From positions 1 to 40,391 of IMG/VR virus record IMGVR_UViG_3300038974_000627: a stretch of 40,391 bases of DNA; one strand, written 5' to 3'. Position 1 is the first letter of the stretch. Each line of letters opens with the position of its first letter. Below the pieces are notes generated by a model. That model did no database searches. It saw only the letters and a list, made by a program, of their open reading frames with translations, and was not told where the DNA came from. Below, in pieces: positions 6,550-32,536 of this stretch. The position numbers and the translations under genes were made by a program. This stretch comes from a virus (taxonomy: Duplodnaviria; Caudoviricetes).

Positions 6550-6559
6550 CTATTTAGTA

Positions 6560-7060
6560 TCATAGTTTTATGAAGCTGCTATTTCTTTCAAGAAAGGCAA
6601 AATCCACTGGAGGTTCTTCGGCCCAAAGACTCTCAACATTTAGGTTCACATGCTCTACGGCAGCTCGTATATTGGTCATGGCGCAGAAGTCCCTTTTGAA
6701 ATCCTTATTGCTTTTGCTGTGCGTCAAATCAGATGCACTTCTCAGGTCTGAGCAGCGAACAATTTCACCCTCAAAGTTCAAGACCTGTGGCAGATACACT
6801 ATTTTTACCTTGGAGCAATACTTGCCAAGCCTTCGAATGTTATCCTTCAGGCAGTCTGTCAACGGTATGTCCGTGTCAAAGACAAGCGCAACCGTTGTAC
6901 CCGGCTGAATGGTGATGAGCTGCGAGTTTGAAAGTATGTTCTGAATAACATTGAAGACCTTTACTCGTCCAGACTGGATTTTCTGAGGCTGCTCCTTCAG
7001 GGCGTTCAACAGCTTCTCCTCGCATCTGCCTTCGACAAAATAGATACAGTTATTCTTCAT
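6560..7060 (-). CDS. TOPRIM/RloB-like protein
   Basis: YFVEGRCE, VFDTD and NFE motifs. Overlaps the ATPase gene. Start at ATG 7060. Confidence 0.7.
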   Translation of the reverse strand: MKNNCIYFVEGRCEEKLLNALKEQPQKIQSGRVKVFNVIQNILSNSQLITIQPGTTVALVFDTDIPLTDCLKDNIRRLGKYCSKVKIVYLPQVLNFEGEIVRCSDLRSASDLTHSKSNKDFKRDFCAMTNIRAAVEHVNLNVESLWAEEPPVDFAFLERNSSFIKL

Positions 7061-8174: not shown

Positions 8175-8391
8175 AGCAGCCTCCAATGATTAGTTCGTTA
8201 ATTACGAAGTAATTATACCACATCTTGCGAGAAATACAACAGTCAGAAAAATAAATCTGAGGTTTTGCCTCGCATTGCGCCAACGGTGCTTCTTTGCCCC
8301 GCACTTTCAAGAACCTCAAAAATGAAAGCCAATGCTCGAAAGCATTGGCTTTTGTGTTCATGATGAAGAAGTGTTCAGCCAGAGCGATATG

Positions 8392-9048
8392 CTACTTGAT
8401 TTCCCATACGAAAGTGACCGTATCGCTCACATCAATATCATCAGGCTCAATATCAATGCTGCTGCCACAAGGGGCTTCTGCGAGGCAGCGATCCGACATT
8501 TCATACTGCGTCGGAGAATACAAATGCAGCTCGCCCCAGTTGTAGTCAATGGTGATAAGCTGGCCCAGAACCACTTCCGCAGCACTGGCAAGGACTTCAG
8601 CTTTTGCCTTCGCGTTCTCCGATGCATTTTTAAGAAGCTCTACACTGACGGTGTCTTTGTCCTTTACAGTGAACTGTACTGAGAACTCCGGCTCAGCAAG
8701 GCATTTTGCAAGGGCAGAGAAGGTTCGTGCCAACCTCTCCATATCAAAATCAAACTCGAGCTTTAGGGCGTGATTGCACACATACCCGTCGAACCACCTC
8801 TTGTAGTTTCCGTTGTTATCCCGCTCACTTTGAAACTCTGGCTGTACATCGAAGTTTGAGGTCTTCAAATCATCGCGCTGAAAGCCCACCTTGATAATGG
8901 CTTCACGCAGACCGTCCAATTGCTCTGCGGCCAGATTCATCATTTTTTCATAGTCCATGTCCTTCGCTTTCAGCGACATAGACAGCACTATGTAGTCAGG
9001 CTTTGCGCTGACCTTGCCGATCCCCTTTACAGTTATGGTTCTGTCCAT
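8392..9048 (-). CDS. SIMPL (DUF541) domain protein
   Basis: TITVKGIGKVSAKPD, A..NAKAKAEVLA..LG, and terminal VTFVW. No signal peptide seen. Confidence 0.9.
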   Translation of the reverse strand: MDRTITVKGIGKVSAKPDYIVLSMSLKAKDMDYEKMMNLAAEQLDGLREAIIKVGFQRDDLKTSNFDVQPEFQSERDNNGNYKRWFDGYVCNHALKLEFDFDMERLARTFSALAKCLAEPEFSVQFTVKDKDTVSVELLKNASENAKAKAEVLASAAEVVLGQLITIDYNWGELHLYSPTQYEMSDRCLAEAPCGSSIDIEPDDIDVSDTVTFVWEIK

Positions 9049-9159
9049 TTTGCCTCCTCCTTAAAGCATTCTGCGTTTATCTACAAGCTTAGTTAATCCT
9101 CAAATCGTTGTTCGGATTGGAAACTATGTTTCACCCGTAGCGAATCAATCAACACTGAG

Positions 9160-11205
9160 TTATTGGCGTTCAATTTTCTCATAGAATGCCCTTACTTCCT
9201 CAATGCTTGTTGAGCGATTGTGTATTGGCAGCGAGGCCCATGTGATATCGTGATAACGTTCCGCCGGCTTGTCCCTTAGTCTGCTGTCTATGATTGATAC
9301 TATCCCGGTATCAGAGTCATTACGAATAAGTCTCCCAATGCCTTGCTTTAACTTGATAATCATTTCTGGGACGCGCACTTCCATCAAATCATCTTTTGCG
9401 ATAGAGGCTTTGTACTCAATAATGGGGTCTGGCACCGGAAAGGGCAATCGGAAGATTATGAGGTTGGACAGGCTTTTACCTTGGATGTCAATGCCCTCCC
9501 AGTATGAACCCGTGCCAAGAAGCACAGAATTGACATCGTTTTTGAACTCGTCCAGCACGCGCTCCTGTGATGACCCCGACTGTTGAATCAAGATATTATA
9601 CGGAAGCTGCCTTTTCTGAAGATTTGCATACACCTCTTCCATATCGGTCTTCGCCGTGAAAAGCACTAAAGCCTTACCATGTGATATGTTTAACACCTGA
9701 ATAAGCCTCTCAACACCCAATTCAATAAAAGCCTCATGCTCCCTCGTGGGATGCGGTAGGTCATCGCAGTAGTAAATCATAGCATGCTCATCATAAGGAA
9801 ATGGTGAGGGCTTTGGCTCAGAGAGAAAGCCTGAACCATCCAGAGGGAAACCCGTATTTTGAATAAAGAAAGCATATTGTTCGTTAAGACTACCCTCTGC
9901 GGTGTTAGCTAACGTTGCGGAAGTAAGAATTGTTTTAACGGTGCCGCTGAAATACAGTTTATGGATGATTTGATTTGTGTTTTTTGGACAGAAAACAAGA
10001 TCAGCGTTATTCCCGTGTCGCTCCAACCAAATAAGGTTATCATCAAGTGCGCCGCAAAGTGCTGAAAAAGACTGTGCAATAGACGATAAGTCATCTGACG
10101 CCGAATTGCTACTCTCTCGCCATGCATTTCTGCTGCCAAAGATTTGTACGGAGCTGGCGAGGGATTCCAAGGCGGTAGTCGCCTTGTGAATGAGGTCAAC
10201 TGCGTTACCGGTATCATGAAAGAAAAAACGCTCGGCGTATTTCATGTCCTGCTTTGCGTCATTGATCTGCTGCTTCATCTGCTGGTTTAGATTCTGGAAC
10301 AACGCGCGGATAGCCCTGCTTGCACCAGTCACTTGATACTGGACATACTCCCGTTCCTCACTGCGTACTTCGCGCTCCGCAGCAGAGATCGTGTTTAGAA
10401 TCCCTGCTTGCCCAAACCGCTCTGTTGTAGCGTTCCGAACCTTTTCCTCAAGATTGTGCGCCTCATCAACAACAATAATCCCGTCCTCTGTATTCAAGAA
10501 GCCCTCTTGACCACGACTAAGCCGAAAAAGGTGGGCGGTCAATAGATCCTGATTGCAGAGAGTAATGCCATCAGAATACCTCAGATCATCCCGCAATTGG
10601 TAATATTGGCAATAGTCCCGGTGCGCACACGCCATGCAGCTCCGCTTGTTAAACCTTGATATATTGATCTTATCCCAAATAGCCGAAGGCACGGCGCAGG
10701 TAAAGCTGCGCCGGTCATGATGCCCAGACTTCATGCATTCCTCAATTACATCGACCATCTCTGCCCCTGGAGTAAGCAAATAAGCCTCTGCTCGTTTCGA
10801 GCAGAGATAATGTGCTTGACCTTTTGCCAGGATCACATTCGTTTGAATTCCGAGGAGATCCTTCAGACGACCAATATCCTTAAGAAGCTGCTCTTGTAAT
10901 GCAATCGTAGATGTAGCAATCACGATGGGCACACTGGTTTTTTGGCAGTACAGCAGCAACGGAACGGAGTATGCGAACGATTTCCCAATACCAACACCTG
11001 CTTCTACCGCAATGTGCTGATTATTCTTGATGGCATCGAGTATTTCAAATGCCATCTCCTGCTGCCCTTCCCGTTCCTCAAAGTGGAACTTTGACGGGGC
11101 ATCATCCCAAAAGAACTTCGTGACAATCTCGCTGATACCATAGAGTTGTGCCTGACGTCGTTTTTTCCGTTCCTCCGGAGTATTAAACCCAAAATACAAA
11201 CTCAC
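9160..11205 (-). CDS. DinG/XPD-family ATP-dependent helicase
   Basis: Q motif REGQ, EAGVGIGKS, DEAH, TSATL, WEGID, LPFPVP and QGIGRLIR. Cys cluster (YLC..C..C..C) compatible with an Fe-S site. Confidence 0.93.
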   Translation of the reverse strand: MSLYFGFNTPEERKKRRQAQLYGISEIVTKFFWDDAPSKFHFEEREGQQEMAFEILDAIKNNQHIAVEAGVGIGKSFAYSVPLLLYCQKTSVPIVIATSTIALQEQLLKDIGRLKDLLGIQTNVILAKGQAHYLCSKRAEAYLLTPGAEMVDVIEECMKSGHHDRRSFTCAVPSAIWDKINISRFNKRSCMACAHRDYCQYYQLRDDLRYSDGITLCNQDLLTAHLFRLSRGQEGFLNTEDGIIVVDEAHNLEEKVRNATTERFGQAGILNTISAAEREVRSEEREYVQYQVTGASRAIRALFQNLNQQMKQQINDAKQDMKYAERFFFHDTGNAVDLIHKATTALESLASSVQIFGSRNAWRESSNSASDDLSSIAQSFSALCGALDDNLIWLERHGNNADLVFCPKNTNQIIHKLYFSGTVKTILTSATLANTAEGSLNEQYAFFIQNTGFPLDGSGFLSEPKPSPFPYDEHAMIYYCDDLPHPTREHEAFIELGVERLIQVLNISHGKALVLFTAKTDMEEVYANLQKRQLPYNILIQQSGSSQERVLDEFKNDVNSVLLGTGSYWEGIDIQGKSLSNLIIFRLPFPVPDPIIEYKASIAKDDLMEVRVPEMIIKLKQGIGRLIRNDSDTGIVSIIDSRLRDKPAERYHDITWASLPIHNRSTSIEEVRAFYEKIERQ

Positions 11206-11238
11206 TGTCAGTCCCCTTATCTATCACTTCATTCAAAT

Positions 11239-11270
11239 GCGGCTCTATTAGTAATAAGCAAAAGAGCCGC
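11239..11270 (-). terminator. Hairpin between the alpha-CTD-like gene and the DinG gene
   Basis: GCGGCTCT pairs with AGAGCCGC. U-tract is weak. Confidence 0.4.
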
Positions 11271-11275
11271 CTTGG

Positions 11276-11698
11276 TCAAGCTGATATCTGCGGTGCTCTT
11301 GCGGCCTTCACGAGCGTCCTTCGTTCCCTTGCTCGGATTCTGGCGCGTTCACGCTTTTTTACTCTCTCTTCTTCCTCGAGTTGTGCAAGTTCCTCTTCCC
11401 AGCGCTTGCGCTCTGTGTCATTATAGCATCTGATACAAGGCTCGACAGAGTCGTATCTATCCCGGCCATAACCCTTCAGCCTTAACCCGAGACCGTCCAG
11501 AGCTTCTACCATTTCCCTGAACATTAATCGAGAAAACGGATTAAGGTCATTGAAATAGATGACCTCCTTCTCAAGTAGTTGCCCTATATATTCAATGCCA
11601 GCTTTTTTAAGCTGCTTGTATGTAAAGATTCGAAGATCAAGCTCTTCAATCTCCCACTCGGCAATATTATCCGGGCGGTTTAGATAATGCTGATACAT
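11276..11698 (-). CDS. RNA polymerase alpha-CTD-like domain protein
   Basis: IEELDLRIFTYKQLKKAGIEYIGQLL...L..LGLRL resembles the alpha-CTD consensus IEELDLSVRSYNCLKRAGI..V.DL. Charged helical tail. Confidence 0.75.
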   Translation of the reverse strand: MYQHYLNRPDNIAEWEIEELDLRIFTYKQLKKAGIEYIGQLLEKEVIYFNDLNPFSRLMFREMVEALDGLGLRLKGYGRDRYDSVEPCIRCYNDTERKRWEEELAQLEEEERVKKRERARIRARERRTLVKAARAPQISA

Positions 11699-11701
11699 CC
11701 C

Positions 11702-12337
11702 TTACTCCTTATCTGCCTTCAAGCATTCACGATACTTCTTTGGTGTGTACTTTGCCCTGGCCGCAAAAACGGAGTCCATAAAGGTTCGTGCCGACTCTTC
11801 TATAATAAGCTCAGCATCGTTTCTCAGCTCGGCAAAAGTTATCGGTGCAGTGTCCAGTCCGAACAGGACATCGTCAATGAAAGCTTCTGCCTGTTTCTTG
11901 TACCGCCTTGGTAATTCAGCGCTGACTCGTCCAAGGAACTGCTCAACGGTCTCGCGCAGATCTCCGTTGCGAAGGCTTTGAATCTGCTCGGCGGTGAAAT
12001 AGATAGGCTCAGTTTCATCGAAAGGAAACTCCTCTCGCTCCTGTGCAGCATATCTGCTCCAAAACTCACGGTCACGATCTTCATCAGAGCATCTGCATGA
12101 AGCTGTGACCATAGTTGTTTTTCCTGTCCCTTTAGCCCTATAGCCAACAGGCAGGATCGGATAGGCCCGATGCGCATCTGCCCGAGACGCATTCTCTATA
12201 TATTGGACAGAACCATCGGTCAGTGTCTGCGCATAATACACCGTTTGTTTGCACTGGTCGGCGGCATAGCTGCGCCGCAACTCGGTAATACGCGATGAAA
12301 AGTCTGTTGCTTGTGCGTTTGAAATGGTGTTTGTCAT
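11702..12337 (-). CDS. Hypothetical protein
   Basis: ORF with AGGAGG RBS before ATG 12337. Confidence 0.7.
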   Translation of the reverse strand: MTNTISNAQATDFSSRITELRRSYAADQCKQTVYYAQTLTDGSVQYIENASRADAHRAYPILPVGYRAKGTGKTTMVTASCRCSDEDRDREFWSRYAAQEREEFPFDETEPIYFTAEQIQSLRNGDLRETVEQFLGRVSAELPRRYKKQAEAFIDDVLFGLDTAPITFAELRNDAELIIEESARTFMDSVFAARAKYTPKKYRECLKADKE

Positions 12338-12362
12338 AAGCCCACCCTCCTTTTCGCTGTGC

Positions 12363-12425
12363 TTGTCTTTCAATGAACCAGCGGCCCCTGACTATATCGG
12401 CATGATTGGTGCGGATCTCATAAAG
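12363..12425 (-). pseudogene. 3' remnant of a paralog of the 12836-13126 gene
   Basis: Translates LYEIRTNHADIVRGRWFIERQ, which aligns without gaps to FYETSTDQTGPVKGRWFVERR (10/21 identical). Confidence 0.65.
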
Positions 12426-12443
12426 GGATTTCGCGAAGCCGTT

Positions 12444-12809
12444 TCAGCTCTGTCCAATGAAATCCTGAAGCATTATATATGGCTTTCCGGGTATCTTCGT
12501 GTTCATTTCGTCTTTTAACCGCGAATCTCTTTCGCAGGATGTATATCTTGAGCAAGTATTACAAAAGTAGGCGACGATATAAATATCAGCAGGAGCACAC
12601 GCTTCCTGTGTGTGGGTAACCTTGACATGTGGATACTGCACCTGTAGCATTTTTAGAATCGGTGCGGCATGAGCCTCAATTTCATGATATGAAAGAATAA
12701 ACTCGTCAACACCTTGCTGAGTAATCAGAGACAAAAGCGCCTTGTTCAAAGCGTCTATTTCCTGCTCATGGATGCCCTGATCGATCTTGGCAATAAATGC
12801 AGCCTTCAC
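12444..12809 (-). CDS. Hypothetical protein
   Basis: 121-aa ORF co-oriented with its neighbours, with GGGAG upstream. Confidence 0.55.
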   Translation of the reverse strand: MKAAFIAKIDQGIHEQEIDALNKALLSLITQQGVDEFILSYHEIEAHAAPILKMLQVQYPHVKVTHTQEACAPADIYIVAYFCNTCSRYTSCERDSRLKDEMNTKIPGKPYIMLQDFIGQS

Positions 12810-12835
12810 CCCATTGAACAGCTCCCTTCGATGGT

Positions 12836-13126
12836 TTATTTGTAGCCGTTATCTCGGCGTTCGACAAACCAGCGTCCTTTCACCGGGCCGGTTTGGTCTG
12901 TGGAGGTCTCATAAAAGAGATAGCTTTGCTTTCCCGCGATTTGCACCGTATATCGATCACCCTGTCCACCGGCTTTCAGTGCCGGTGCGGGACGCACGTC
13001 CATAACCCGGTCGATGGTGTACGTCTCTCCGTCTTCCCATTTGATTCGAAACGGCTGCATCTTGCCGTCAGCTCCGTAGGCGACAATTACAGGAACATAT
13101 ACCTTTGCGCTGTGCTCACCAGCCAC
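12836..13126 (-). CDS. Small beta-rich protein of the type often encoded near dinB in Clostridia
   Basis: KVYV.V...DG..P..I.WEDG..Y.IDRV...LKAGG.G.RY...W(F)VE pattern, recognised from memory of this family. Confidence 0.75.
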   Translation of the reverse strand: MAGEHSAKVYVPVIVAYGADGKMQPFRIKWEDGETYTIDRVMDVRPAPALKAGGQGDRYTVQIAGKQSYLFYETSTDQTGPVKGRWFVERRDNGYK

Positions 13127-13366
13127 TTATATCACCTCTATGCTCTCTCCCTTAACAGCGGGGCTTGCCCTATCAGCAGAGAAGAACTCCTGAATCGTGA
13201 TACCCAGGCCAACGCAAACAAGCTCTATGGTATCTACGGAGAGCTGCCCCTTCTTTCTGCTGGATGCCTTGATCGTCGAGTAGTTGATCCCGCTAATTTG
13301 TGCCAAGCGATAAAGCGAGATGCTCCGCTTATCGGCCAACTCCTTAACCCTTGCTAATGTGTCCAT
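13127..13366 (-). CDS. Small XRE/Cro HTH protein
   Basis: SLYRLAQISGINYSTI...TIELVC..LGITIQEFF. Confidence 0.88.
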   Translation of the reverse strand: MDTLARVKELADKRSISLYRLAQISGINYSTIKASSRKKGQLSVDTIELVCVGLGITIQEFFSADRASPAVKGESIEVI

Positions 13367-16938: not shown

Positions 16939-17463
16939 ATGGCAAAAGAAACGGCTGCTTTACGCAAGCATAAAGCGAAAATTGCATCCCTCGGGATGGA
17001 CAGCGATGCGGTGTTCCATAAATCGAAGCTGCTCCTCGCAGTTTACCGCGACGTCACATGGGCAATCAGCGAGCAACTGGAGGAAATCCGTGACCATGCA
17101 TATGAGACGGGCGGACACAATTTGGACGCAGGATTCCGCTATCTTGCAGACTTTGCCCCAGATGTGGAGGCAGACAGATTTGCCGAACGTGTCTGCTGCG
17201 TCTGTGAAACTCGCATGTATATAGACCTCATTGACAGAGCGCTGGTTCGAATGAAGGCCTATCCCGTCTACGGCAACGTCTACTACGAGATTTTGGACAA
17301 GCAGTACATCAGTCGGTTTCCACTGACGGAGCCGGAGCTGTCCGAGGCGCTGAGAATTGAGCGCAGTGTGTTCTATGACAGAAAGAAGGAGGCCCTTCAC
17401 CTGTTTGGCGTTTGCTTGTTTGGATATACACTGCCAGAACTGCGCCGATTGTTTACCGACTAA
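16939..17463 (+). CDS. ArpU/RinA-like transcriptional regulator with C-terminal HTH
   Basis: YYEIL..QY...ELSEALRIERSVFYDRKKEAL. GGAGG before ATG 16939. Confidence 0.65.
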   Translation: MAKETAALRKHKAKIASLGMDSDAVFHKSKLLLAVYRDVTWAISEQLEEIRDHAYETGGHNLDAGFRYLADFAPDVEADRFAERVCCVCETRMYIDLIDRALVRMKAYPVYGNVYYEILDKQYISRFPLTEPELSEALRIERSVFYDRKKEALHLFGVCLFGYTLPELRRLFTD

Positions 17464-17521
17464 ATACCGACTGCATCCCGACTAAGTTCCGACCCTTTAC
17501 CTACTCCCAAGCGACTGTCAA
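17445..17521 (+). repeat. Seven CCGAC-like pentamers at exact 11-bp spacing
   Basis: CCGAT 17445, CCGAC 17456, 17467, 17478 and 17489, CCTAC 17500, GCGAC 17511. Confidence 0.9.
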
Positions 17522-17624
17522 TATGCTACACTGTCCATGCTGGGGAATACTGACTATCCGCCGCAAGACCTGATAACACAGGCCTTGCGGCTGTTTTCTT
17601 CTCTCCAGCCAATACGGGAGCCGG

Positions 17625-17663
17625 AAGGCCGGGCGTGATTAATTATCGCGCCCGGCCTTTTTT
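17625..17663 (+). terminator. Intrinsic terminator in the leader of the sigma-like gene
   Basis: AAGGCCGGGCGTGAT pairs with ATCGCGCCCGGCCTT, followed by a T-run. Confidence 0.75.
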
Positions 17664-17794
17664 GCTGCCCATTTTTGGAGAGTTAGCATGGACAGGCGCT
17701 ATAGGCACACCCGCCCCGGTTGTCGTTCTCCTCCGTCGTTTTGGTTTTCTTCCCCCGCTCCCCGAAAACCAAAAAACGATAAGGAGAATGAACA

Positions 17795-18355
17795 GTGTAC
17801 AAAAGGTATTTCAGATGGAAAGACGCGAATTGTCATGGAATCGCCCCAGAATGGGTGGAAATGACCGGCAGAGAGTTTTTCCTCTTTACAAAATCTCCAG
17901 AATCCAAGGGACGATATTTTATTGAGATGGATGAGGAGGACATGGAACCAATCGTAATTGAGGCTACAACCGAAAAGTATATTGAGTGGCGTAAAGAGCT
18001 GCGGCGCCGCGCACGGCTGTCCAAATCTAAAATTGGTTTTACAACCATTTCTCTGTTTGGCTGTGAGTTCGATACCGATGGAAACGGCGAGGAACATATC
18101 CCAGATGACACACAGGATACAGAGGGCGCTGCAATGTGCAGCCTCCAAGAGGAAGCGCTTCACAGCGCCCTTTCTCTTTTGCTTCCCGAGGAACGCAGCC
18201 TAATAAATGAGTTATTCCTTTCGGATGCAAGGAAAACCATGCGTGAATTGGCGGCAATTGAGGAGCTGTCACATGTTGCTATCAGCAAGCGCAGCAAAAA
18301 AATTCTTAAAAAACTAAATTTTCTGGTTTCCAACTCGAGAAAAAAGCGGCAATAG
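17795..18355 (+). CDS. Sigma-70 region-4 (ECF-like) protein of mobile elements
   Basis: LHSALSLLLPEERSLINELF...TMRELA...SHVAISKR.KKILKKL. AAGGAG RBS before GTG. Confidence 0.85.
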   Translation: MYKRYFRWKDANCHGIAPEWVEMTGREFFLFTKSPESKGRYFIEMDEEDMEPIVIEATTEKYIEWRKELRRRARLSKSKIGFTTISLFGCEFDTDGNGEEHIPDDTQDTEGAAMCSLQEEALHSALSLLLPEERSLINELFLSDARKTMRELAAIEELSHVAISKRSKKILKKLNFLVSNSRKKRQ

Positions 18356-18422
18356 AGGGTGAGAGGGAAAAATGGGAGCAACCATCATGCCCCTCCATTG
18401 CTCTTTGAAAAACACTGCTTTA

Positions 18423-18727
18423 GGCGGTCATATCCGGCAAGTGCATAACGTCAGCGGACGAGCCTTAAACGGGAAAAGCGATGCGGAGGGTGCGCCATGA
18501 CCACCTGTGTGGATGGTAAATCCACATAAAAGACGGCCAAATAAGGTGCCCAGCGGTTCCCACCCATCCTAAAACAGCTTTGGCAAGCTGTTTCGCAATG
18601 TCCTCGTCCGCCTATAATGGTACCCCTGCCCAGCCACAGTCTCAAACAATGGGGGCAGCTCGGAGAGATCCTCGGAGGGGTGAGATTCCCGGAGTGCGGA
18701 GCCAACCGCAGTGCTTACTTGACCGCC
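18423..18727 (+). ncRNA. Candidate ~305-nt structured RNA downstream of the sigma-like gene
   Basis: Nested helices: 18423-30 with 18720-27, 18454-62 with 18603-11, 18508-14 with 18520-26, 18572-80 with 18585-93, 18626-31 with 18653-58. T-loop-like GGGTGAGATTCCC at 18678-18690. No credible ORF. Confidence 0.7.
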
Positions 18728-18880
18728 CACGGCTCGGGAAGTAGTGTCGAATGGAGCCATCAACGCGCAAAATAATTACAAATATGGAGGCCGCTCAGCA
18801 TGCGTTGAAACAAGCCTGTGCTTGTCCAACCAAAGAGCGGCCTCCATACCTACATATTACCAGATTTGGAGGTATAGCTC

Positions 18881-19276
18881 ATGGAACAAAACTATCATGA
18901 TTTTTACAGAGGCGAGATCTACTACGCCTATCTTGAACCGGCTTTCGGCCACGAACAGGGTGGGACTCGTCCAGTCCTCATACTTCAGAACGACGTTGGG
19001 AACTACTTCTCTCCGACACTCATAGTTACAGCAGCTACCACCCAGCGGCACAGGAAAAAGGATCTTCCCACTCATGTTGAGCTGTCAGATGTAGAAGGAC
19101 TTCCGGATATTTCGGTTTTTATGCTGGAAGTACTGCGAACCATTGATAAGCGCCGCATCCGCCGATATGCGGGGAAGCTCACTAAAGAACAGATGGCCAA
19201 GATTGACGAGGCACTACGTATCAGCCTGCGTTTGGACGAGGATGCCTACCTTCCCACAGAAGTGGAGGCCCCGTGA
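18881..19276 (+). CDS. PemK/MazF-family endoribonuclease
   Basis: RGEIYYAYL...GHEQGGTRPVLILQND.GN, LPTHV and E.LRTIDK.R. Confidence 0.93.
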   Translation: MEQNYHDFYRGEIYYAYLEPAFGHEQGGTRPVLILQNDVGNYFSPTLIVTAATTQRHRKKDLPTHVELSDVEGLPDISVFMLEVLRTIDKRRIRRYAGKLTKEQMAKIDEALRISLRLDEDAYLPTEVEAP

Positions 19277-20978: not shown

Positions 20979-21103
20979 CGCGGTCACTTGATATTAGAAG
21001 CCATGGGGGGCGCTCAGAAGGTTAGCCAAGCTATTTCCTTGGCAGCCAAAACGAGCGGCCCCTATTTTTGTGAGATCAAGAATCAAAAACGAGGAGGCAC
21101 AAA

Positions 21104-21265
21104 ATGGACAGTGAACGAATTGGAAAACTGAATATTGTGGAGTTTGCCGATCTTCTCCTGCTGATGAACCGCCTCATTGGGCTGGGACTCATTTCGGAGG
21201 AAGAAAAGGAACGCACAGCACGTCGAATCGCGTATGAGAATGAACTCTCACTTTTGTTAATTTAG
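21104..21265 (+). CDS. 53-aa small protein preceding the recombinase cassette (not in the ORF track)
   Basis: GAGGAGG RBS. Translation MDSERIGKLNIVEFADLLLLMNRLIGLGLISEEEKERTARRIAYENELSLLLI. GLISEEE is SHOCT-like. Confidence 0.7.
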   Translation: MDSERIGKLNIVEFADLLLLMNRLIGLGLISEEEKERTARRIAYENELSLLLI

Positions 21266-21330
21266 TGCGGTTTGGGTATAGCTTTTCCTGATCTTTGATG
21301 GTATTGTGTGTTGCTGAAGGGAGGGGTATT

Positions 21331-22929
21331 ATGACGGCAATCAGCACGGTAATCGGAGCGAATGCACTGGACAAAAACAGAGAGGTCATCTATATCGCTC
21401 CTAAAGCACAAGTCACGCCTATCAGACTGAGAGTCGCCGGTTATGCCCGAGTGAGCAGTGACAGCGATGACCAGCTCAACTCCTACGAAGCGCAACGGCG
21501 GTATTATGCTGACCTTATCATGTCGAATGCGAAATGGGAATATGTTGATGTGTACGCAGACGAGGCGGTCACTGGTACTTCTATCGAAAAGCGCGATGAT
21601 TTCAATCGCATGATGGCTGACTGCAGGCGGGGGAAAATCGACCGGATTATCACGAAGTCGACGAGCCGGTTCGCCCGAAATGTTATGGACTCCCTTGCAT
21701 CTGTCCGTGAATTGAAAGACATCGGCGTGTCCGTCTTGTTTGAAAAGGAGGGAATCGATACTGGTCTTATAACCAGTGAGGTTCTGCTTACGCTTTATTC
21801 CGCATTCGCACAGGAGGAATCGCAGAACATTTCGCAGAACAAAAAGCGCGGCAACAGAATGAGCATGAGGAATGGCGACTATGTGTCTTCCAGTGTTCCT
21901 TACGGTTACCGCCTTGTAGATAAGTTACCGCAAGTTTTTGAACCCGAGGCAGTCATCGTAAAGCGAATCTTTGAAGAGTACCTCTCCGGATGCAACGCCT
22001 ATGAGATTGCCAGAGGGCTGACTGAGGAAGGCATTCCACGCAAGGACGGTGGCGGCAGATGGCGACACAAAACCATCTACTCCATGCTGCGAAATGAGCG
22101 CTACATTGGGGATATGCTCCTCCAAAAGAATTTCAAGACCGATGAGTTGCCTTACAGAAAAGTCAAGAACCGTGGTGAGCTTGAAAAGATATACATATCC
22201 GGCACACACGAGGGAATAATCGATCCCATCTCGTTCAAGCTCGCCAATCTTCTCTTAGAGCAAAAACACAGCGGAGCATCCGGCATCGCAGAGCGCACAT
22301 TCCCTTGGAGTCTGAAAATAAGATGCGGCGAGTGCGGTAAATCATACCGTCGTCGTGTGACTAAGGGCAAGATATACTGGACTTGCCGTCTGCATGATGA
22401 AAGTAGCGATTACTGCGCTGCTGAACGAATTGCCGAGCCGGATATAGATATGGCGTTTGTACGGCTGTATAACAAGCTAAAAGCCAACAGCGAGAAAATC
22501 CTCGTGCCCATGCAGGAACAACTTGAGAAGCTGCGAGATTCTCGTTATATTAACAACCCGGAAATACAAACCATCAACAAACAAATAGCAGAACTCTCAG
22601 AGCAGAATCATGTGATGAACGGGCTTATGGCTCGAGGAATCCTTGATTCTGCTCTCTTTGTATCTCAGCAAGATGATATAAAGAGAAAATTAAGAGCACT
22701 GAAAATTGCTAAATCCAAGCTGCAAAGCGCCCGGGACGATGATGACATCATCGAAAAAACGGAAGACCTAATCGGCATCCTCGACGAAGGCCCTCCACAT
22801 ATCAGTGGCATGGACGAAACGCTGTGCTCAGATATAGTGGAACGGGTAACGGTCAACGGAGATACGCTGACTTTTCAGATAGCGAATGGATTGGAACTCA
22901 AAGAAAGATTAGTGAGGACGGTACGGTAA
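21331..22929 (+). CDS. Large serine recombinase
   Basis: YARVSS, SRFARN, recombinase domain PYGY, Zn ribbon CGECG...WTC, coiled coil. Confidence 0.95.
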   Translation: MTAISTVIGANALDKNREVIYIAPKAQVTPIRLRVAGYARVSSDSDDQLNSYEAQRRYYADLIMSNAKWEYVDVYADEAVTGTSIEKRDDFNRMMADCRRGKIDRIITKSTSRFARNVMDSLASVRELKDIGVSVLFEKEGIDTGLITSEVLLTLYSAFAQEESQNISQNKKRGNRMSMRNGDYVSSSVPYGYRLVDKLPQVFEPEAVIVKRIFEEYLSGCNAYEIARGLTEEGIPRKDGGGRWRHKTIYSMLRNERYIGDMLLQKNFKTDELPYRKVKNRGELEKIYISGTHEGIIDPISFKLANLLLEQKHSGASGIAERTFPWSLKIRCGECGKSYRRRVTKGKIYWTCRLHDESSDYCAAERIAEPDIDMAFVRLYNKLKANSEKILVPMQEQLEKLRDSRYINNPEIQTINKQIAELSEQNHVMNGLMARGILDSALFVSQQDDIKRKLRALKIAKSKLQSARDDDDIIEKTEDLIGILDEGPPHISGMDETLCSDIVERVTVNGDTLTFQIANGLELKERLVRTVR

Positions 22930-23771
22930 TGGCTAAGAACAGAATGCTCCCCTTTGGGTATCGGGTTGAAAGCGGTACCGTAAAGCTTAACGCTCTGGAA
23001 GCGGACACGGTGCGTCGTGTCTTCCGCGAATATGCAATGGGGTCTTCCTATAAGGCAATCGCCGACTCGCTCACAGCAGATGGCATATCCTACCCCCCCG
23101 CAAAGCCTGTGTGGAACAAGAACATGATTGCCCGTCTGGTTCAAAATGAGGATTATCTCGGTACCGATACCTACCCCTCCATAATTGAACATAATGAGTA
23201 TGCGGCTGCAAAAGCGGCACAAAAGCAACTGAATTATACTGAACCGCCTGCGCTTCGCAAAATTGGAAAGCTCCTTGTGTGCGGAGAGTGCGGCCAGCCC
23301 TTGGCGCGCCGCGTACACGCCAACGGACGAACACGTTGGTATTGTAAAAATGATAACCAGCACATCCCGAACGCTGTAACAGATGAGTTTCTGCTGGAAA
23401 CGGTCACCGCACTGCTCTACCGACTTAAGCAAAATCCTAATCTGGTAAAACCGAGCACAGACCGAATCCCAGAGTCAGCATTGAAGCTGGCGCGACTCCA
23501 GAATGAGATTAACGACATCCTCGCTCGCGAAGTCGCTGACGAGGCTGAGGTGAGGAAGTTAATCCTTAGATTAGCAACGGCAAAATATGAAGCCTGCGAT
23601 AATAACTCAGCCACAGCGCTTGCCCTTCAAGAACTACTGAAGGAACATCAGCACGAATCAGATCTGAACCCAGATGTTCTGATGGCAATAACTGATCAAA
23701 TCGTTGTCACCGCGACAGTGACCGTGTCACTGTCACTGAAAAGCGGAGAAACCATATCGGAAGGAGCATGA
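22929..23771 (+). CDS. Recombinase/Zn-ribbon protein lacking the catalytic resolvase domain
   Basis: Begins at PFGY. Contains Y.G...YPSII and CGECG...WYC. TAATG coupling to the upstream gene. Confidence 0.88.
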   Translation: MAKNRMLPFGYRVESGTVKLNALEADTVRRVFREYAMGSSYKAIADSLTADGISYPPAKPVWNKNMIARLVQNEDYLGTDTYPSIIEHNEYAAAKAAQKQLNYTEPPALRKIGKLLVCGECGQPLARRVHANGRTRWYCKNDNQHIPNAVTDEFLLETVTALLYRLKQNPNLVKPSTDRIPESALKLARLQNEINDILAREVADEAEVRKLILRLATAKYEACDNNSATALALQELLKEHQHESDLNPDVLMAITDQIVVTATVTVSLSLKSGETISEGA

Positions 23772-23774
23772 CAT

Positions 23775-25427
23775 ATGTCCGGCCCGGAAAGAGAAGTCAT
23801 TGTAATTCCCGCTACAATCCATCGTGGGAGCAGCAAGAAGCTCGACAGGCAGCTTAATGTTGCCGGATATTGCCGAGTATCGACAGAGCAGGATGAGCAG
23901 CTCATGAGTTATGAGACGCAAAAAAAGTATTATTCAGAGCTGATTGCAAGAACGCCTGAATGGTCTCTTGCGGGAATATATGCTGATTCCGGGATCAGTG
24001 GTGCAACTGCCGAAAAGCGACCGGATTTCATGAAGATGATTCGGCACTGCAAGGCCGGCAAAATCGACCTAATCATAACAAAGTCAATCAGCCGATTTGC
24101 CAGAAATACGCTGGACAGCATCGGTTATGTCCGTAAGCTCAAGGCGATGGGAATTGGCGTCCTGTTCGAGAAAGAGAATATCAACTCTCTCGACTGCACC
24201 AGCGAGGTCATACTCACAATCCTCTCCAGCCTTGCGCAGGAGGAATTGAACTCCCTGTCTTCTAACGTTAAGATGGGAAAACGCATGGCAATGAAGGAGG
24301 GCAAGGACTCGTTCCCGTACTCAACCATCTATGCCTTCAAAAAAGGTGATGATGGCAAACCGGAAATCATCCCGGAGGAAGCCGAGGTCGTCAGACGCAT
24401 ATACAGACGGTATCTTGCTGGTGACAGCATAATTGCCATACGGGATGCATTGGTGAGCGATGGCGTTCCGTCCCCACGAAAAAAAGAGGTATGGACAACA
24501 GCAACGGTCAGAAACATCCTTGAAAATGAGCGTTTCTGTGGGGATGTAATTCTCCAGAAAACCTATGTTACTGATCCAATCAGCAAAAAGGTCAAGAAGA
24601 ACAATGGCGAATTGCCGAAAGTTTTTATCAAGAACAACCACCCGGCGATTATCGAGCGTAGCGAGTTCGAACGCGTTCAACTGGAACACGCAAGGCGCAG
24701 TTCAAAAAGGAAAGTATCGGATAAGGCACAGACTGAGCTTGGAAAGTACAGCAGCATGTATGCGCTCACTGAAATACTTGTCTGCGGCGAATGCGGCACA
24801 CCCTACAAGAGAATCGTGTGGACTACAAGGGGTGTAAAGAAAACGGTGTGGCGCTGTACCAATCGCTATGACCACGGCACGAAATACTGTAAGAACTCAC
24901 CCACACTGGATGAAGAAAGTCTACACGAAGCCATAGTAAGAGCACTTTCAGCGACACGCAGGGAGCGTGCTTCATCAATAGCTTATCTCTCGAACCAACT
25001 TAGCCGCTCATTCGTACAGGTTAACCCAGAGAGTCTCTGCGCAGATCAGCTTGAAGACCAGATTAGAGTCCTGAAAGCACAGGTCATGGAATTAATGACT
25101 GAGAGCATCAGCAAAAACACACTTGCTGAAAACGAAGGCAGGCTCAAAGAGATGTCTGATAGCATAACAGCTCTAAACGAAAGACTGGAAAAGAAAAAAG
25201 AAGCAGATTTGAGTGATGGCGCCGTTGAGAGTCGCCTGTCAGCGATCACGGAAGCGCTGGCGCTGGAGCCAAACCAGATGGGCACATATGATGATAATCT
25301 GGTGCGGCAACTCATAGAAACGATCAAGGTAATAGACAGCGAGAAGCTGCTGATTACGTTTAAAGGCGGGATGCAGTTTGAGCAGGCCATAGCTCCAAAC
25401 ATCCGCAAGATACGGCACTGCCGATAA
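23775..25427 (+). CDS. Large serine recombinase
   Basis: YCRVST, SISRFARN, HPAII, CGECG...WRC. Confidence 0.95.
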   Translation: MSGPEREVIVIPATIHRGSSKKLDRQLNVAGYCRVSTEQDEQLMSYETQKKYYSELIARTPEWSLAGIYADSGISGATAEKRPDFMKMIRHCKAGKIDLIITKSISRFARNTLDSIGYVRKLKAMGIGVLFEKENINSLDCTSEVILTILSSLAQEELNSLSSNVKMGKRMAMKEGKDSFPYSTIYAFKKGDDGKPEIIPEEAEVVRRIYRRYLAGDSIIAIRDALVSDGVPSPRKKEVWTTATVRNILENERFCGDVILQKTYVTDPISKKVKKNNGELPKVFIKNNHPAIIERSEFERVQLEHARRSSKRKVSDKAQTELGKYSSMYALTEILVCGECGTPYKRIVWTTRGVKKTVWRCTNRYDHGTKYCKNSPTLDEESLHEAIVRALSATRRERASSIAYLSNQLSRSFVQVNPESLCADQLEDQIRVLKAQVMELMTESISKNTLAENEGRLKEMSDSITALNERLEKKKEADLSDGAVESRLSAITEALALEPNQMGTYDDNLVRQLIETIKVIDSEKLLITFKGGMQFEQAIAPNIRKIRHCR

Positions 25428-25444: not shown

Positions 25445-25498
25445 CAAGAGCGCAAGAGCGCAAGGGCGCAATGTGTTTGCCTACATTGCGCCCTTGCG
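25445..25498. repeat. Three 8-bp direct repeats overlapping a 16-bp inverted repeat
   Basis: CAAGAGCG CAAGAGCG CAAGGGCG. CGCAAGGGCGCAATGT (25459-74) pairs with ACATTGCGCCCTTGCG (25483-98). Confidence 0.8.
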
Positions 25499-25609
25499 TT
25501 ATTTCTGTGGAATGGGAGACTTGCTATCCGAAAAGAGCGCGCAAAAACGGGAGGCTAATCCAGAGATTCGATTAGTCCCAGTGAAGATATATGATGTTGC
25601 CCTGCTTTG

Positions 25610-25933
25610 TTACGCGAGGCTCTCTTTTTTCTTTTCTATGCGATGAGATCGCAGCATGGTGAGCGCATCTTCGCGCGCACGCTCATCTGCCTCACGGGAA
25701 GCTGTGACCAAATCTGTTTCGTAGGCAGAAAGTGTAGATACAGTGATTTCCTCATTGCCAAGAAGATAATCAACCGTCACGCCGAAGAATGCGGCGAGTT
25801 TTAGAAGCATATCAATCGAGGGCTCTCGGTCGCCCGTCTCATATCTCGAATAAACAGTCGGAGCGCAATCAAGTTTCTCAGAAACAGCCTTCTGTGAAAG
25901 CCCCTTCTGTAAGCGAATTTCCTTAAGTCTCAT
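25610..25933 (-). CDS. XRE-family repressor (cI-like)
   Basis: LSQKAVSEKL...YSRYETGDREP...LAAFFGVTVDYLLG. Confidence 0.92.
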   Translation of the reverse strand: MRLKEIRLQKGLSQKAVSEKLDCAPTVYSRYETGDREPSIDMLLKLAAFFGVTVDYLLGNEEITVSTLSAYETDLVTASREADERAREDALTMLRSHRIEKKKESLA

Positions 25934-25963
25934 AGGCTCACCTCATCTCTACAATAATTATAT

Positions 25964-26051
25964 TGCCGCTCTGGTGCGTTGTAATCACCGATTTGGCATT
26001 TTTAGTATTGACAGCTTACCAATTTGGCATTATCATAATGCCGAGACGGTA
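25964..26051. promoter_or_regulatory. Four TGCC-N5-GGTR operators and a promoter between divergent HTH genes
   Basis: Sites at 25964-76 (+), 25986-98 (-), 26017-29 (-) and 26039-51 (+). TTGACA (26008) -17 nt- TATCAT (26031). Confidence 0.8.
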
Positions 26052-26071
26052 TGTGAGAGGGGCGATAACCT

Positions 26072-26290
26072 ATGAGCTGCATGCGAGATCAGCGAGAAGC
26101 TCGACATATGACGCAGCGAGAACTGGCAGAGGCTACAGGATTGTCTGCCGTCAGTATAAGCCGGTATGAAACTGGTGCGCGCACTCTCTCCGTAGCGAAT
26201 GCTAAGGTAATTGCCTCTGCCTTAAACACTGAGTGGATGAGCTTCTTCGAGGATAGCGACCACGAATCCGAAGGAGTTGAATGCATATGA
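26072..26290 (+). CDS. Cro-like HTH protein
   Basis: MTQRELAEATGLSAVSISRYETGAR. Confidence 0.9.
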   Translation: MSCMRDQREARHMTQRELAEATGLSAVSISRYETGARTLSVANAKVIASALNTEWMSFFEDSDHESEGVECI

Positions 26291-27255
26291 GCAAACCGCG
26301 TACCTATGCATTCTATTCGTCTGTAAAACCTAAAGCGGTTGACTGGCTGTGGTACCCATATATCCCATATGGAAAGCTTACGCTTCTGCAAGGCGATCCC
26401 GGCGAGGGTAAGTCGACAATAATGCTGAATATCGCGGCAGCGATTACCCAGGGCCGACCAATGCCTGACGGGTTTGCCTTTGGTGAGGCTCACAGCGTTG
26501 TGTACCAGTGCGCCGAGGATGACGCGGCAGATACTGTAAAGCCGCGGCTCATGGCTGCAGGCGCTGACTGCGGCAAGGTGGCGTATATCATTGATGAGGA
26601 CAGATCATTGACATTGGATGATAGCCGCCTCGAAAAAACGATAGCTCAGACACATGCCAGACTTCTTATCCTTGACCCGATACAATCCTTTCTTGCTCAA
26701 GACGGAGATATGCAAAGTGCTGGCAAGATGAGAAGCGTACTTAGCAAACTGTCCATGATAGCGGCTAAGCACAAATGCGCCGTTGTTCTCGTCGGACACA
26801 TGAACAAAACACAGGGCGGAAAAAACCTATATCGCGGTCTCGGCAGCATAGATATTGCGGCAATCGCCAGAAGCGTTCTCATGGTTACCAGAGACGAATC
26901 AGATCCGCAAATACGTTATCTGCATCCAATCAAATCAAGCCTCGCGCCAGAAGGCCCGCCCATCGGCTTCTCATTCGACAAGGAAACCGGCTTTCAATGG
27001 ATAGGGCCGTGCGAAGTCAATGTTCCCGGTGAGGAAATAGATGGGCAGATGGATGAGAGCAAAAGCGAGACAGCAATGCAGATGCTTCTGGAGTTGCTGT
27101 CCGAAGGCGATGCCCCCAGTGCCTCGATATTCTATAAAACGAACCAGATGGGCATATCCCGCAGAACGGTCCAGACCGTCAAAAAGGAACTTGGGATAAA
27201 GGCGTACAAAAAAGAAAACGCATGGTATTGGACGTTGCCAGAGGTGGTCAAATGA
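26287..27255 (+). CDS. AAA_25/RepA-like ATPase or helicase
   Basis: WLWYPYIP.GKLTLLQGDPGEGKS, AED, LLILDP, HMNK, GSIDI..ARS. C-terminal wHTH-like segment. Confidence 0.9.
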   Translation: MSKPRTYAFYSSVKPKAVDWLWYPYIPYGKLTLLQGDPGEGKSTIMLNIAAAITQGRPMPDGFAFGEAHSVVYQCAEDDAADTVKPRLMAAGADCGKVAYIIDEDRSLTLDDSRLEKTIAQTHARLLILDPIQSFLAQDGDMQSAGKMRSVLSKLSMIAAKHKCAVVLVGHMNKTQGGKNLYRGLGSIDIAAIARSVLMVTRDESDPQIRYLHPIKSSLAPEGPPIGFSFDKETGFQWIGPCEVNVPGEEIDGQMDESKSETAMQMLLELLSEGDAPSASIFYKTNQMGISRRTVQTVKKELGIKAYKKENAWYWTLPEVVK

Positions 27256-27761
27256 GCGCAATGCCCAACGAGAACGGAAAAGTCAAGGTGGCGGGATATG
27301 TGAAGCTTGCCAAGCTATGGGAGCGTAGCCGTGACGAGGCGATAGCTTTTCACTCTTCATATTATGCGAACAAATACTCAGATTCATCGCAGTTCCAGCT
27401 TGTTGGGACATACATTGATATCACTGGCAAAAAGGAAATTCGGCAGCGTCCTGAAATGCTCCGGCTCATTCGTGATTGCTCTCTTGGCAAAGTCGAATGC
27501 ATTGATGAGCTGACAAGCGGATATCTGGCGGCGAATGCCAAGGAGTTTAGTTACCTTATAAAGATGCTGTTTGAGATGGGTAACGGCATCCAGATTCTAA
27601 CGGAAGATAAAGCGTACAACATTAACACCATCGAAGATGAGGATGCCCAACGCGAAGCTCTTTACAAAATGGCATCTGAATTGGTGGCTCTGGCCCCTGA
27701 TGACTATAATCAATGGAGCGCTAAGGTCATTACGGGTATGGATCACTTAGCAGGAGAGTAA
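27252..27761 (+). CDS. Degenerate resolvase-like domain protein
   Basis: VAGYVKLA replaces Y.RVS. Retains YID..G...RPEM.RLIRDC..GK. Confidence 0.75.
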   Translation: MSAMPNENGKVKVAGYVKLAKLWERSRDEAIAFHSSYYANKYSDSSQFQLVGTYIDITGKKEIRQRPEMLRLIRDCSLGKVECIDELTSGYLAANAKEFSYLIKMLFEMGNGIQILTEDKAYNINTIEDEDAQREALYKMASELVALAPDDYNQWSAKVITGMDHLAGE

Positions 27762-27781
27762 AAACAGGAGATGACGCCATC

Positions 27782-29803
27782 ATGGACGATATCAAGGAAA
27801 CACAATATACGGAGGCTGCCGGGGATGCCGAGACTTCAGTTGACGCGAGTGTGACACCTTCAGAAAGCTCAGATAAGTCTCGCGATTTAATTGAGCGCCC
27901 GTGGCGGCCACAGGATGCAGACAGAGACAGTCTCAAGTACGCGATTCGCCAGCGAGTTAGGAATACGACAGCGTCTCCTAATGCTGTCATCATATATCCA
28001 GACCCTACGCCTACAATACAAGATGAGGACGAAAAGCGAGTTGCTGTATATGCTCGTGTCAGCACAAAAAGCACGGAGCAAGTCTCTTCGATAGAAAACC
28101 AGACGAAGTATTACACGGAGAAAGTCGAGCAGACTCCGAATTGGGAGCTGCAGCAGATATATAGTGATGAGGGCAAGTCTGGAACTTCAATAAAAAAGCG
28201 CACGGAGTTCATGCGGATGATGCAGGATGCTGCAGACAACAAGATGGATCTTATCCTGTGCGCAAGCGTATCCAGATTTGCCAGAAACATTGCCATCTGC
28301 ACAGAACAGCTGCGCCTGCTTCGGACACAAAACCCATCCCACCCGGTCGGAGTTTACTTCGAAACTGAAAACATATATACGCTCGACCCTAAGAGCAGCC
28401 AGTCTTTATCAATCCACGCCATGCTTGCTGACTGGGAGTCGGCACAAAAGAGCAGCCGCATGATTTTATCTTACGACCAACGCATCTGCATGGGGCAATA
28501 TCCTATATCAGATTTACTGGGATATCGACATACGCCCGACGGCCAACTCATCATACAAGAAGACGAGGCTATTACAGTTCGGTTTGTCTTTCTGGCTTAC
28601 ATCTGCGGATATTCGCTACCTGAGATTGCTCAGATCCTGACGGAAAAGGGTAGAAAGACGCTAAAGGGCAATACGACATGGGATTCTCGAATGGTAAAGG
28701 AGATCATGCTGAACGAGCGGCGCTGGGGCGACCTCGACGTTAGAAAAAGGATCGTCATTGACTACGTCGAGGGCAAAACAATAAAGAATATCAAGACAAG
28801 AGTCAAGGCTTTCGTCCCGGCTCATCATGAGGGCATTGTAACGCCGGAACTCGCAAAAGCGGCGCATTGCGTATTCGCAAATACCCGCGCGACAGGTGGC
28901 GTGTCGGAACTGAATGTCATAGAGAGTGGGGCGTTGAAGGGCTTCGTGAGCATTTGCCCAACGTGGGGCGGCATCAGCGCAGACATTATAAAGCAGATCA
29001 GTCGAGGTGTATATACTGAAGCTGAGTTTGACGAGCTCCAGCAGAAAGCTCGAATCTTCTCAGGAGGACAACACAGTAATGTCCTCTCGATGCAATTAAC
29101 AGGCTATGAAGTACCACATGGCGTTTTCTTCATAAACAGGAGCACATCAACAATAACGCTCTCGCCGTCTCGCATACAGTTCAGCAAATCAAGCCATATA
29201 AACCTTGGCCAGAGTGAATCGGTCGAGATACTGTATCATCCATTTCTCCAAGCCTTGGTGATACGTGCTTGTGACTCCAATTCACCAAACGCTTTCAAGT
29301 GGGAAAATGACAACGGGGAAATCGTGACGAGCATTGCGGCAAGGGCATTCTGTGGCGCGATATATGATGAGATGATGTGGATGCATCAGTACAAGTTCAA
29401 GTTCCGGGGGATTACCAGAACGCGAGGCAACGCTAAGATGCTTATGTTCTATCTGGATGAACCTCAGATCCTGCCGGGCAAAAGAAAGCAACCGCAGGAA
29501 GACAGCCTCTCAATCGATGAAGCCCAAAGTGCAGTGAAGTATATTCCATACAAACGAGATAGCGTTGATCATGGTACCGAGGATGTGGAGGCTGATATAA
29601 CGTATGCTTACCCAGATGTCTGGGGTGGCACAACAGTTGGTTCGAGCTACGCTGCACGTAAGCTCCGCGACACAATCATTGATACTCTTACGGAAGAAGA
29701 CATCTCAATTCAAGGCACAGCGGTGTTGAATCCGATGATCGGAGAGATCCCCACCAGAGAGGAATTACTCAGGGAAGTAGACCAATTGCTCATGTCGATG
29801 TGA
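27782..29803 (+). CDS. Large serine recombinase with atypical C-terminal domain
   Basis: YARVST, SRFARN, LLGY, HEGIV. No CxxC Zn ribbon after the recombinase domain. Confidence 0.92.
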   Translation: MDDIKETQYTEAAGDAETSVDASVTPSESSDKSRDLIERPWRPQDADRDSLKYAIRQRVRNTTASPNAVIIYPDPTPTIQDEDEKRVAVYARVSTKSTEQVSSIENQTKYYTEKVEQTPNWELQQIYSDEGKSGTSIKKRTEFMRMMQDAADNKMDLILCASVSRFARNIAICTEQLRLLRTQNPSHPVGVYFETENIYTLDPKSSQSLSIHAMLADWESAQKSSRMILSYDQRICMGQYPISDLLGYRHTPDGQLIIQEDEAITVRFVFLAYICGYSLPEIAQILTEKGRKTLKGNTTWDSRMVKEIMLNERRWGDLDVRKRIVIDYVEGKTIKNIKTRVKAFVPAHHEGIVTPELAKAAHCVFANTRATGGVSELNVIESGALKGFVSICPTWGGISADIIKQISRGVYTEAEFDELQQKARIFSGGQHSNVLSMQLTGYEVPHGVFFINRSTSTITLSPSRIQFSKSSHINLGQSESVEILYHPFLQALVIRACDSNSPNAFKWENDNGEIVTSIAARAFCGAIYDEMMWMHQYKFKFRGITRTRGNAKMLMFYLDEPQILPGKRKQPQEDSLSIDEAQSAVKYIPYKRDSVDHGTEDVEADITYAYPDVWGGTTVGSSYAARKLRDTIIDTLTEEDISIQGTAVLNPMIGEIPTREELLREVDQLLMSM

Positions 29804-32500: not shown

Positions 32501-32536
32501 CCCATAGCAGCTAAATACTATAGAGGAGGGCTTTGA

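Follow-up and report, generated by a model that had tools for sequence, protein, structure and literature searches.

The closest described counterpart of the RNA element reported here is canT of Tn916 (Wirachman and Grossman 2024, PMC11658703), which is located between orf8 and xis. In the accessible parts of that paper, canT is defined genetically, without a structure or a family assignment, and its antitermination activity is described as processive, cis-acting, orientation-specific and independent of other Tn916 genes. Three tandem terminators are read through by canT alone, plain IPTG induction is sufficient for its activity, and canT supplied in trans neither complements nor inhibits. The activity is lost upon deletion of nt 229–390 (delta-162) and in the canT(S3) mutant, in which ATA at nt 283 is changed to TGC; in a 400-nt canT fragment the S3 change has little effect. 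Rfam, pemK and boxA are not mentioned in these parts of the paper.

The Rfam collection contains a short structured RNA, the pemK RNA motif (RF02913), for which no function is given in the searchable papers. The motif is reportedly attributable to Weinberg et al. 2017. In the main text of Weinberg 2017 (PMC5737381) the pemK motif is absent. No paper linking pemK to canT was found in the literature searched, the supplement of Weinberg 2017 lying outside it. A further relevant system is the boxA site, with the consensus AUGAUCUUUGAAA in B. subtilis and UGCUCUUUAACA in E. coli. Such a site is bound by B. subtilis NusB, according to the available part of PMC13753749.

The analysed stretch of DNA, called the window in the following, comprises all 40,391 nt of the IMG/VR record IMGVR_UViG_3300038974_000627. 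The record is filed as viral; its gene neighbourhood appears to resemble that of a Clostridia integrative element. The related loci are mostly annotated as Oscillospiraceae. No conjugation operon was recognised in the window with Pfam, and a search of the window returned neither tRNA nor tmRNA genes and no clear element-end repeats. The RNA element is preceded by genes for a Y-family polymerase, an HTH protein, an IrrE/ImmA-like protease, a 186-aa protein of no recognised kind and the sigma-like protein. It is followed by mazF, two ParB-like genes, a 53-aa ORF, three large serine recombinase genes and a hairpin of 19 pairs. As with canT, the element is non-coding, its flanking genes lie on the same strand, and it is located 5′ of mobility genes. 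The features of the locus are listed in Table 1.

Table 1. Features of the RNA element and its surroundings in the window
Feature	Position	Strand	Basis
Four CCGAC repeats at 11-nt intervals and, downstream of them near 17525, the -10-like site TGCTACACT; candidate regulated promoter	17456–17493	+	Sequence
Folded leader 5′ of the sigma-like gene; at about 17627–17666 a hairpin resembling a terminator, with U tail	17533–17695	+	Folding
Gene for a 186-aa protein; sigma-70 region-4-like HTH (about residues 97–186) after a beta-rich N-terminal domain that shows no apparent likeness to sigma region 2	17795–18355	+	TIGR02937, structure models
boxA-like site TGCTCTTTGAAA, 5′ end of the RNA	18399–18410	+	Conserved in alignment A3
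Optional local hairpin containing the 5′ arm of the outer helix described earlier	18414–18428	+	Present in 13/30 relatives
Conserved closing helix (about 18435–18446 with 18711–18725) and the multi-helix domain that it encloses	18435–18725	+	Compensatory pairs: helix 1, 3/4; helix 2, 4/4; register in the window read from sequence
5′ subdomain with GCGGACGAG/CTCGTCCGC as closing helix; homologue of the canT 5′ half	18454–18611	+	Covariation; model R1, 34.8 bits on canT
Rfam pemK motif RF02913: three hairpins, the last being the T-loop-type GGG-UGAGAUU-CCC (18678–18690)	18614–18693	+	53.2 bits
Conserved tail at the 3′ end, comprising a CCC/GGG hairpin and AAGTAGTGTCGAAT	18726–18753	+	Alignment, covariation
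Conserved strong GC hairpin directly 3′ of the RNA; copy in the window without U tail	18786–18845	+	Folding
mazF/pemK-family gene; cargo carried only occasionally at this site, downstream in 11/77 relatives	18881–19276	+	Pfam PF02452, 105.7 bits
GC hairpin, second copy, here with a TATTTTTG tail; candidate for a terminator ahead of the small ORF 21104–21265 and the recombinases	21005–21070	+	Fold and sequence; called by neither the terminator script nor the consensus scan
Three large serine recombinase genes, usual 3′ partners of the RNA	21295–25427	+	Pfam; 65/75 relatives
Long-stem (19 pairs) terminator-like hairpin at the operon end	25457–25500	+	Prediction

A preliminary description of this DNA, made from the letters alone, had proposed a non-coding element of about 305 nt with several helices between the sigma-like gene and mazF. 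The complementary words and hairpins that it listed were all found where it had placed them, and the gap between the stop of the sigma-like gene (18355) and mazF (18881) measures 525 nt, as it had said. The multi-helix non-coding domain was confirmed, and its length had to be revised. The element is a conserved folded RNA of a known family, extending over about 18399–18753 and thus about 355 nt. It starts at a boxA-like 5′ site and runs past the former 3′ limit through the conserved GGGAAGTAGTGTCGAAT at 18737–18753. It was also correct that the gap holds no convincing ORF: relative to the window, 208 of the 246 indels have lengths not divisible by three, and a conserved ORF is thus not the explanation for the region.

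Folded alone, the segment 18415–18735 is modestly more stable than expected by chance (z = -1.90; 2/100 shuffles equally good). For a comparative analysis, relatives were gathered by a DNA pattern derived from the RNA, which yielded 9 loci from viral records, 74 from genomes and 119 from metagenomes, in a set biased to one subfamily. From these 202 loci, 151 with both ends were retained and reduced to 34 with less than 93% identity, the window included. Thirty were aligned; L073, L108, L199 and L118, in which the 5′ end was mis-anchored or over-long, were dropped. The consensus of the 30 relatives consists of 64 pairs in 14 helices, in which 97% of the cells are paired, against 37–45% when the partners are slid. 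Covariation analysis had been proposed as a check on the element. Compensatory change was found at 42 of the 64 consensus pairs as compared with 25.5 in shuffles, and none of 500 shuffles was as good, with the caveat that one alignment served both to derive and to test the structure and that the search pattern includes helices 5 and 6.

Most of the helices named in the preliminary description are among those supported. Compensatory changes occur in all five modelled pairs of the inner helix 18454/18603, in 6/7 pairs of the hairpin 18508–26, in 3/5 pairs of the hairpin 18572–93, and in both modelled pairs of the hairpin 18695–710. In the hairpin 18626–58 they affect 2/4 pairs of the stem and 4/5 pairs of the inner stem. 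The 5′ subdomain contains, besides the hairpin at 18572–93, the helices 18485–95/18553–69 and 18502–13/18521–48. The GGG-loop-CCC hairpin at 18678–90 is also part of the covariation-backed consensus, and its loop had been compared to a T-loop. A T-loop has U as its first loop base, a purine as the fourth and A as the fifth, together with two variable extruded bases. The loop fits this definition in the alignment, with U at position 1 in 29/30 rows, a purine at position 4 and A at position 5 in all 30, and a variable position 6.

The outermost closing helix of the preliminary description, GGCGGTCA/TGACCGCC, did not hold up as a conserved feature. Only 67.6% of its cells are paired, 453 of 500 shuffles are as good, and its 5′ arm is absent in 17/30 relatives. 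In the remaining 13 rows the arm sits in an insert, and each insert folds as a local hairpin, for which 170 of 500 shuffles are as good, there being too little variation to judge its covariation. These observations bear on the idea that the RNA is a conditional antiterminator or switch, in which read-through is set by a factor or by the choice between the conserved closing helix and the outer helix, the downstream hairpin being the off state. In the sequence of the window the outer and the conserved closing helix are mutually exclusive, and folding in silico favours the outer one by 9 kcal/mol (-128.0 versus -118.6 kcal/mol), which leaves room for an alternative fold. Four or five pairs of the outer helix are possible in 12–13 rows with the insert, and most loci have a terminator-like hairpin next to the RNA. 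Against this stand the lack of the insert in more than half of the relatives, the rows L078 and L114, which alter the insert yet keep the local hairpin, the absence of a covariation signal for the distal pairing, and the activity of canT under plain induction (PMC11658703, accessible parts). A switch of this kind is considered rather improbable.

The Rfam scan that had been suggested as a second check gave one match in the whole window at gathering scores, the pemK motif RF02913 at 18614–18693. The match covers the full model, positions 1–61, and its 53.2 bits exceed the curated cut-off of 34.8. Because of this match the element is not new. To our scan of the corresponding region of Tn916, the Tn916-type element of plasmid pCF10 served as a stand-in; its landmarks agree with those in the accessible parts of the canT paper (ATA at 283–285; orf5 of 83 codons with GCA as codon 30). 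In the canT interval of pCF10 the pemK model scores 55.0 bits at nt 283–383 after the orf8 stop. The ATA changed in canT(S3) (nt 283–285) corresponds to the first three positions of the pemK model, and the 229–390 deletion takes out the whole motif. The pemK motif of the window also opens with ATA (18614–16), the equivalent of the S3 triplet. The triplet is not invariant: it is another word in 7/30 rows and is missing in one.

The 5′ half was compared separately. The model R1 was built only from the 5′ half of the subfamily to which the window belongs, without the pemK part, and 7 further rows with long inserts were excluded from it. R1 matches canT at nt 118–281 with 34.8 bits (rough E 1.3e-7), and the next match in the 27.7-kb locus reaches 10.1 bits. 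The genome G001 by itself carries four full-length family members (L258–L261). In this genome an R1-type 5′ half precedes all four pemK matches. Because pemK and R1 both match canT, and because the 5′ half precedes every pemK match in G001, the 61-position Rfam pemK motif covers only the 3′ portion of an RNA about 355 nt in length, and the window element and canT are homologous over both halves.

The preliminary description had named a match to a decayed group II intron as something that would count against its view, and the T-loop-type hairpin and the multi-helix layout would agree with domain I of such an intron. No group II intron family matched at the Rfam gathering score in the window, or at E values up to 2 in 17300–19000. 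Among the 51 ORFs scanned there was no reverse transcriptase, although a very diverged remnant would escape these scans. The compensatory conservation speaks against decay. We regard an intron remnant as the least credible of the explanations considered, with hardly any chance of being correct; a remote ancestry is conceivable.

The gene directly upstream of the RNA had been described as sigma-70-like. The assignment is correct for region 4: the structure model aligns with region 4 of sigma32 over 84 positions at residues 97–180 (VIA Z 10.7, rmsd 4.7). It does not seem to extend to the N-terminal domain (17795–18037), which shows no apparent likeness to region 2 and consists of a beta-rich fold with one long helix in both models; the score of the protein with TIGR02937 (NCBIfam sigma70-ECF), 27.7 bits, lies under the cut-off of 42.9. 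The model of the sigma-like protein has a pLDDT of 92. The family comprises 561 relatives (representatives, whole protein), and a close-relative search with the sigma-like protein returned only 2 proteins and no loci. No clear structural match was found for the N-terminal domain. The best one, to the IF3 N-domain (Z 5.3, rmsd 5.1, 70 aligned), is within the chance range, and this result is not proof of novelty.

The RNA had been thought to be tied to this protein, which would use it as a cofactor or guide. A related possibility is a two-part antiterminator comparable to conAn of pLS20, where an upstream protein gives processivity to a downstream RNA (PMC8191782, available text). Such a partnership would fit the sigma-region-4-like gene that directly precedes the RNA in 48 of the 77 loci that extend far enough upstream, the position of Orf7 upstream of canT, and the weak likeness of the N-terminal domain to IF3, the latter with a Z score that chance arrangements also reach. 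However, the gene directly 5′ of the RNA encodes an XRE protein in 22 loci, an HTH_11 protein in 2, and another or no product in 5. The 77 loci are not independent, and XRE is found in 4 of 26 RNA clusters. The RNAs of L052, with a sigma-like gene upstream, and of L059, with an XRE gene, are 91% identical. An obligate pairing with one upstream protein family is not found, because of the XRE genes and because of these two nearly alike RNAs behind different genes. Moreover, canT needs no other Tn916 gene and alone passes three tandem terminators (PMC11658703, accessible parts), and a variable guide-like segment at a fixed place is not seen in alignment A3. A joint function of the RNA and the sigma-like protein is accordingly given a very small chance. 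The RNA is probably not a partner of the adjoining protein; the latter most likely regulates the same operon by binding DNA and stands outside the RNA machine. Since the upstream protein of conAn aids its antiterminator RNA, a modulating role of the upstream protein is possible by analogy; it is not required by the data.

Transcription of the sigma-like gene and the RNA may start at the candidate promoter upstream. The segment 17456–17695 is possibly an activator-controlled promoter with an attenuator. All Rfam matches to the leader 17533–17695 are below threshold. In the metatranscriptome run X7, a 188-nt piece of the leader of a relative was found (17432–17618, 15 differences).

On the 3′ side, recombinase genes follow the RNA in 65 of 75 loci, and the recombinase block is the constant partner of the RNA. 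The Rfam name of the motif suggests a cis-regulator or RNA antitoxin of mazF. In the window mazF is directly next to the RNA, and no antitoxin family was matched among its scanned neighbours. However, mazF is found downstream in only 11 of 77 loci and is absent behind canT. The similar GC hairpins at 18786–18845 and 21005–21070 flank mazF and the ParB-like genes, as if this block had been inserted into, or had duplicated, the conserved hairpin. Regulation of mazF is a highly unlikely function of the RNA. The 53-aa ORF at 21104–21265 precedes the first recombinase gene, and the relatives L001, L062 and L105 carry small ORFs at this place that are alike in size and make-up. No PHROGs match was found for the 53-aa ORF, and its product could be a recombination accessory protein.

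The cargo at 41–13366 and 31372–33825 includes genes for a WYL protein, an ADP-ribosylglycohydrolase, a DinG-like helicase and three metallophosphoesterases, and looks like a defence or stress island. At 25610–29803, beyond the long hairpin, a second module contains a divergent XRE pair, an AAA ATPase and a fourth serine recombinase, and is perhaps a separate element.

A strong GC hairpin at most 130 nt 3′ of the RNA occurs in 38 of 45 non-redundant loci, compared with 2/225 shuffles. It carries a U-rich tail in 24 of the 45 loci (10 on the opposite strand), compared with 0/225 shuffles. In six of seven metatranscriptomic runs that were compared, pieces of at least 150 nt identical to the window were present, all of them inside 18371–18765. 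The run X15, the kind of which is not on record, covers the whole stretch, and the run X14 contains no more than 42 nt of the core, which belong to another element. These data are contigs, which carry no strand, ends or level, and missing contigs of flanking genes prove nothing alone; the identical pieces give a weak hint that the RNA accumulates. The conserved hairpin right behind the core, with its frequent U tail, and the confinement of the identical pieces to the RNA would be expected if the element were a discrete stable RNA that ends at this hairpin and has a separate function, exerted in trans or in processed form. Yet a compact folded domain would outlast the decay of a longer mRNA as well, the contigs leave strand, ends and level unspecified, the first hairpin in the window has no U tail, and canT had no effect in trans (PMC11658703, accessible parts). 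We consider an independent stable RNA unlikely.

The boxA-like site was assessed by its position and conservation, since the 12-mer alone does not occur in the window beyond chance (1 found, 0.48 expected). In G001 the boxA family pattern has four matches, three of which lie about 100 nt before the 23S rRNA genes, one for each of the three in this genome, while the fourth precedes a pemK match by 220 nt; there were no control matches. In canT the boxA-like site corresponds to nt 119–131. The published active canT fragment of 452 nt begins at nt 126, halfway through the site (PMC11658703, accessible parts), and an intact boxA may for this reason be dispensable in the reporter. It is likely that boxA is a helper for long-range processivity and not part of the core.

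Our preferred reading, which we hold to be probable by analogy with canT, is that the element is a cis-acting processive antiterminator of the canT/pemK family serving the recombinase operon. Antitermination of the operon ending in the recombinases was one of three options in the preliminary description, and it is favoured because the element is homologous to Tn916 canT over both halves. Transcription would start at the upstream promoter, and the RNA would fold 3′ of the sigma-like gene while it is transcribed. The folded RNA would remain on RNA polymerase, presumably by binding to it, so that the polymerase could pass the terminator-like hairpins that follow and continue into the serine recombinase genes. 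Host NusB/S10, loaded at boxA, may assist. This reading draws on the conserved fold, on the homology to both halves of canT, on the boxA-like site at the 5′ end, on the hairpins that follow and on the neighbouring genes. Against it count the distance to canT, with only 34.8 bits for the 5′ half, and the first hairpin 3′ of the RNA, which in the window has no U tail. The second hairpin, called by neither script nor scan, the small effect of S3 in the 400-nt fragment and the variable ATA triplet likewise count against it. A terminator right behind a constitutive antiterminator needs explanation. In the conAn system long stems can resist antitermination (PMC10325885, available part), and by analogy this may extend to the hairpin at 25457–25500.

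A broader proposal can be made only tentatively, and we think it more doubtful than not. The canT/pemK RNAs might constitute a widespread antiterminator composed of boxA and a folded RNA, an RNA-only counterpart of lambda nut/N that recruits host Nus factors. This antiterminator would be paired with its own terminator to gate the expression of the recombinase genes and hence excision, and would accumulate as a stable RNA some 390 nt long. The unusual N-terminal domain of the upstream protein may tune it in the sigma-linked elements.

Joining pemK to canT provides a testable function for an orphan motif. In return, canT gains a covariation-backed secondary structure, with a boxA and a T-loop that can be mutated. 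The join also suggests RNA antitermination as the control of excision genes in many serine-recombinase elements from Clostridia of the gut and of digesters.

Compared with the known systems, the locus shares with conAn of pLS20 the arrangement of a small gene followed by a cis-acting antiterminator region, 260–600 nt long in conAn, in a Gram-positive mobile element. In contrast to the gene 5′ of the window RNA, which is exchangeable, the conAn protein is required for long range (PMC8191782, available text). The boxA-like site TGCTCTTTGAAA is close to the rRNA boxA consensus of both B. subtilis and E. coli (PMC13753749, available part). Unlike in the rRNA operons, a large folded RNA comes after the boxA of the window, and binding of NusB there is putative. 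The match to Rfam pemK is full-length and lies 5′ of a pemK-family gene, whereas pemK genes are a minority neighbour in the subfamily of the window. With canT the element shares the order of landmarks, namely the boxA-like site, the GCCAUGACC helix region, AUAAUGRUAC, and the three-hairpin core with the T-loop-type hairpin. Both RNAs are located 3′ of a gene with sigma region 4 and 5′ of recombination genes. In contrast to Tn916, the window has three serine recombinases in the place of xis-int and no orf8-like gene in between, and its RNA has additional helices and the optional hairpin at the 5′ end, differs in the 3′ tail and is directly followed by a GC hairpin. The copy in the window is one more member of the canT/pemK family.
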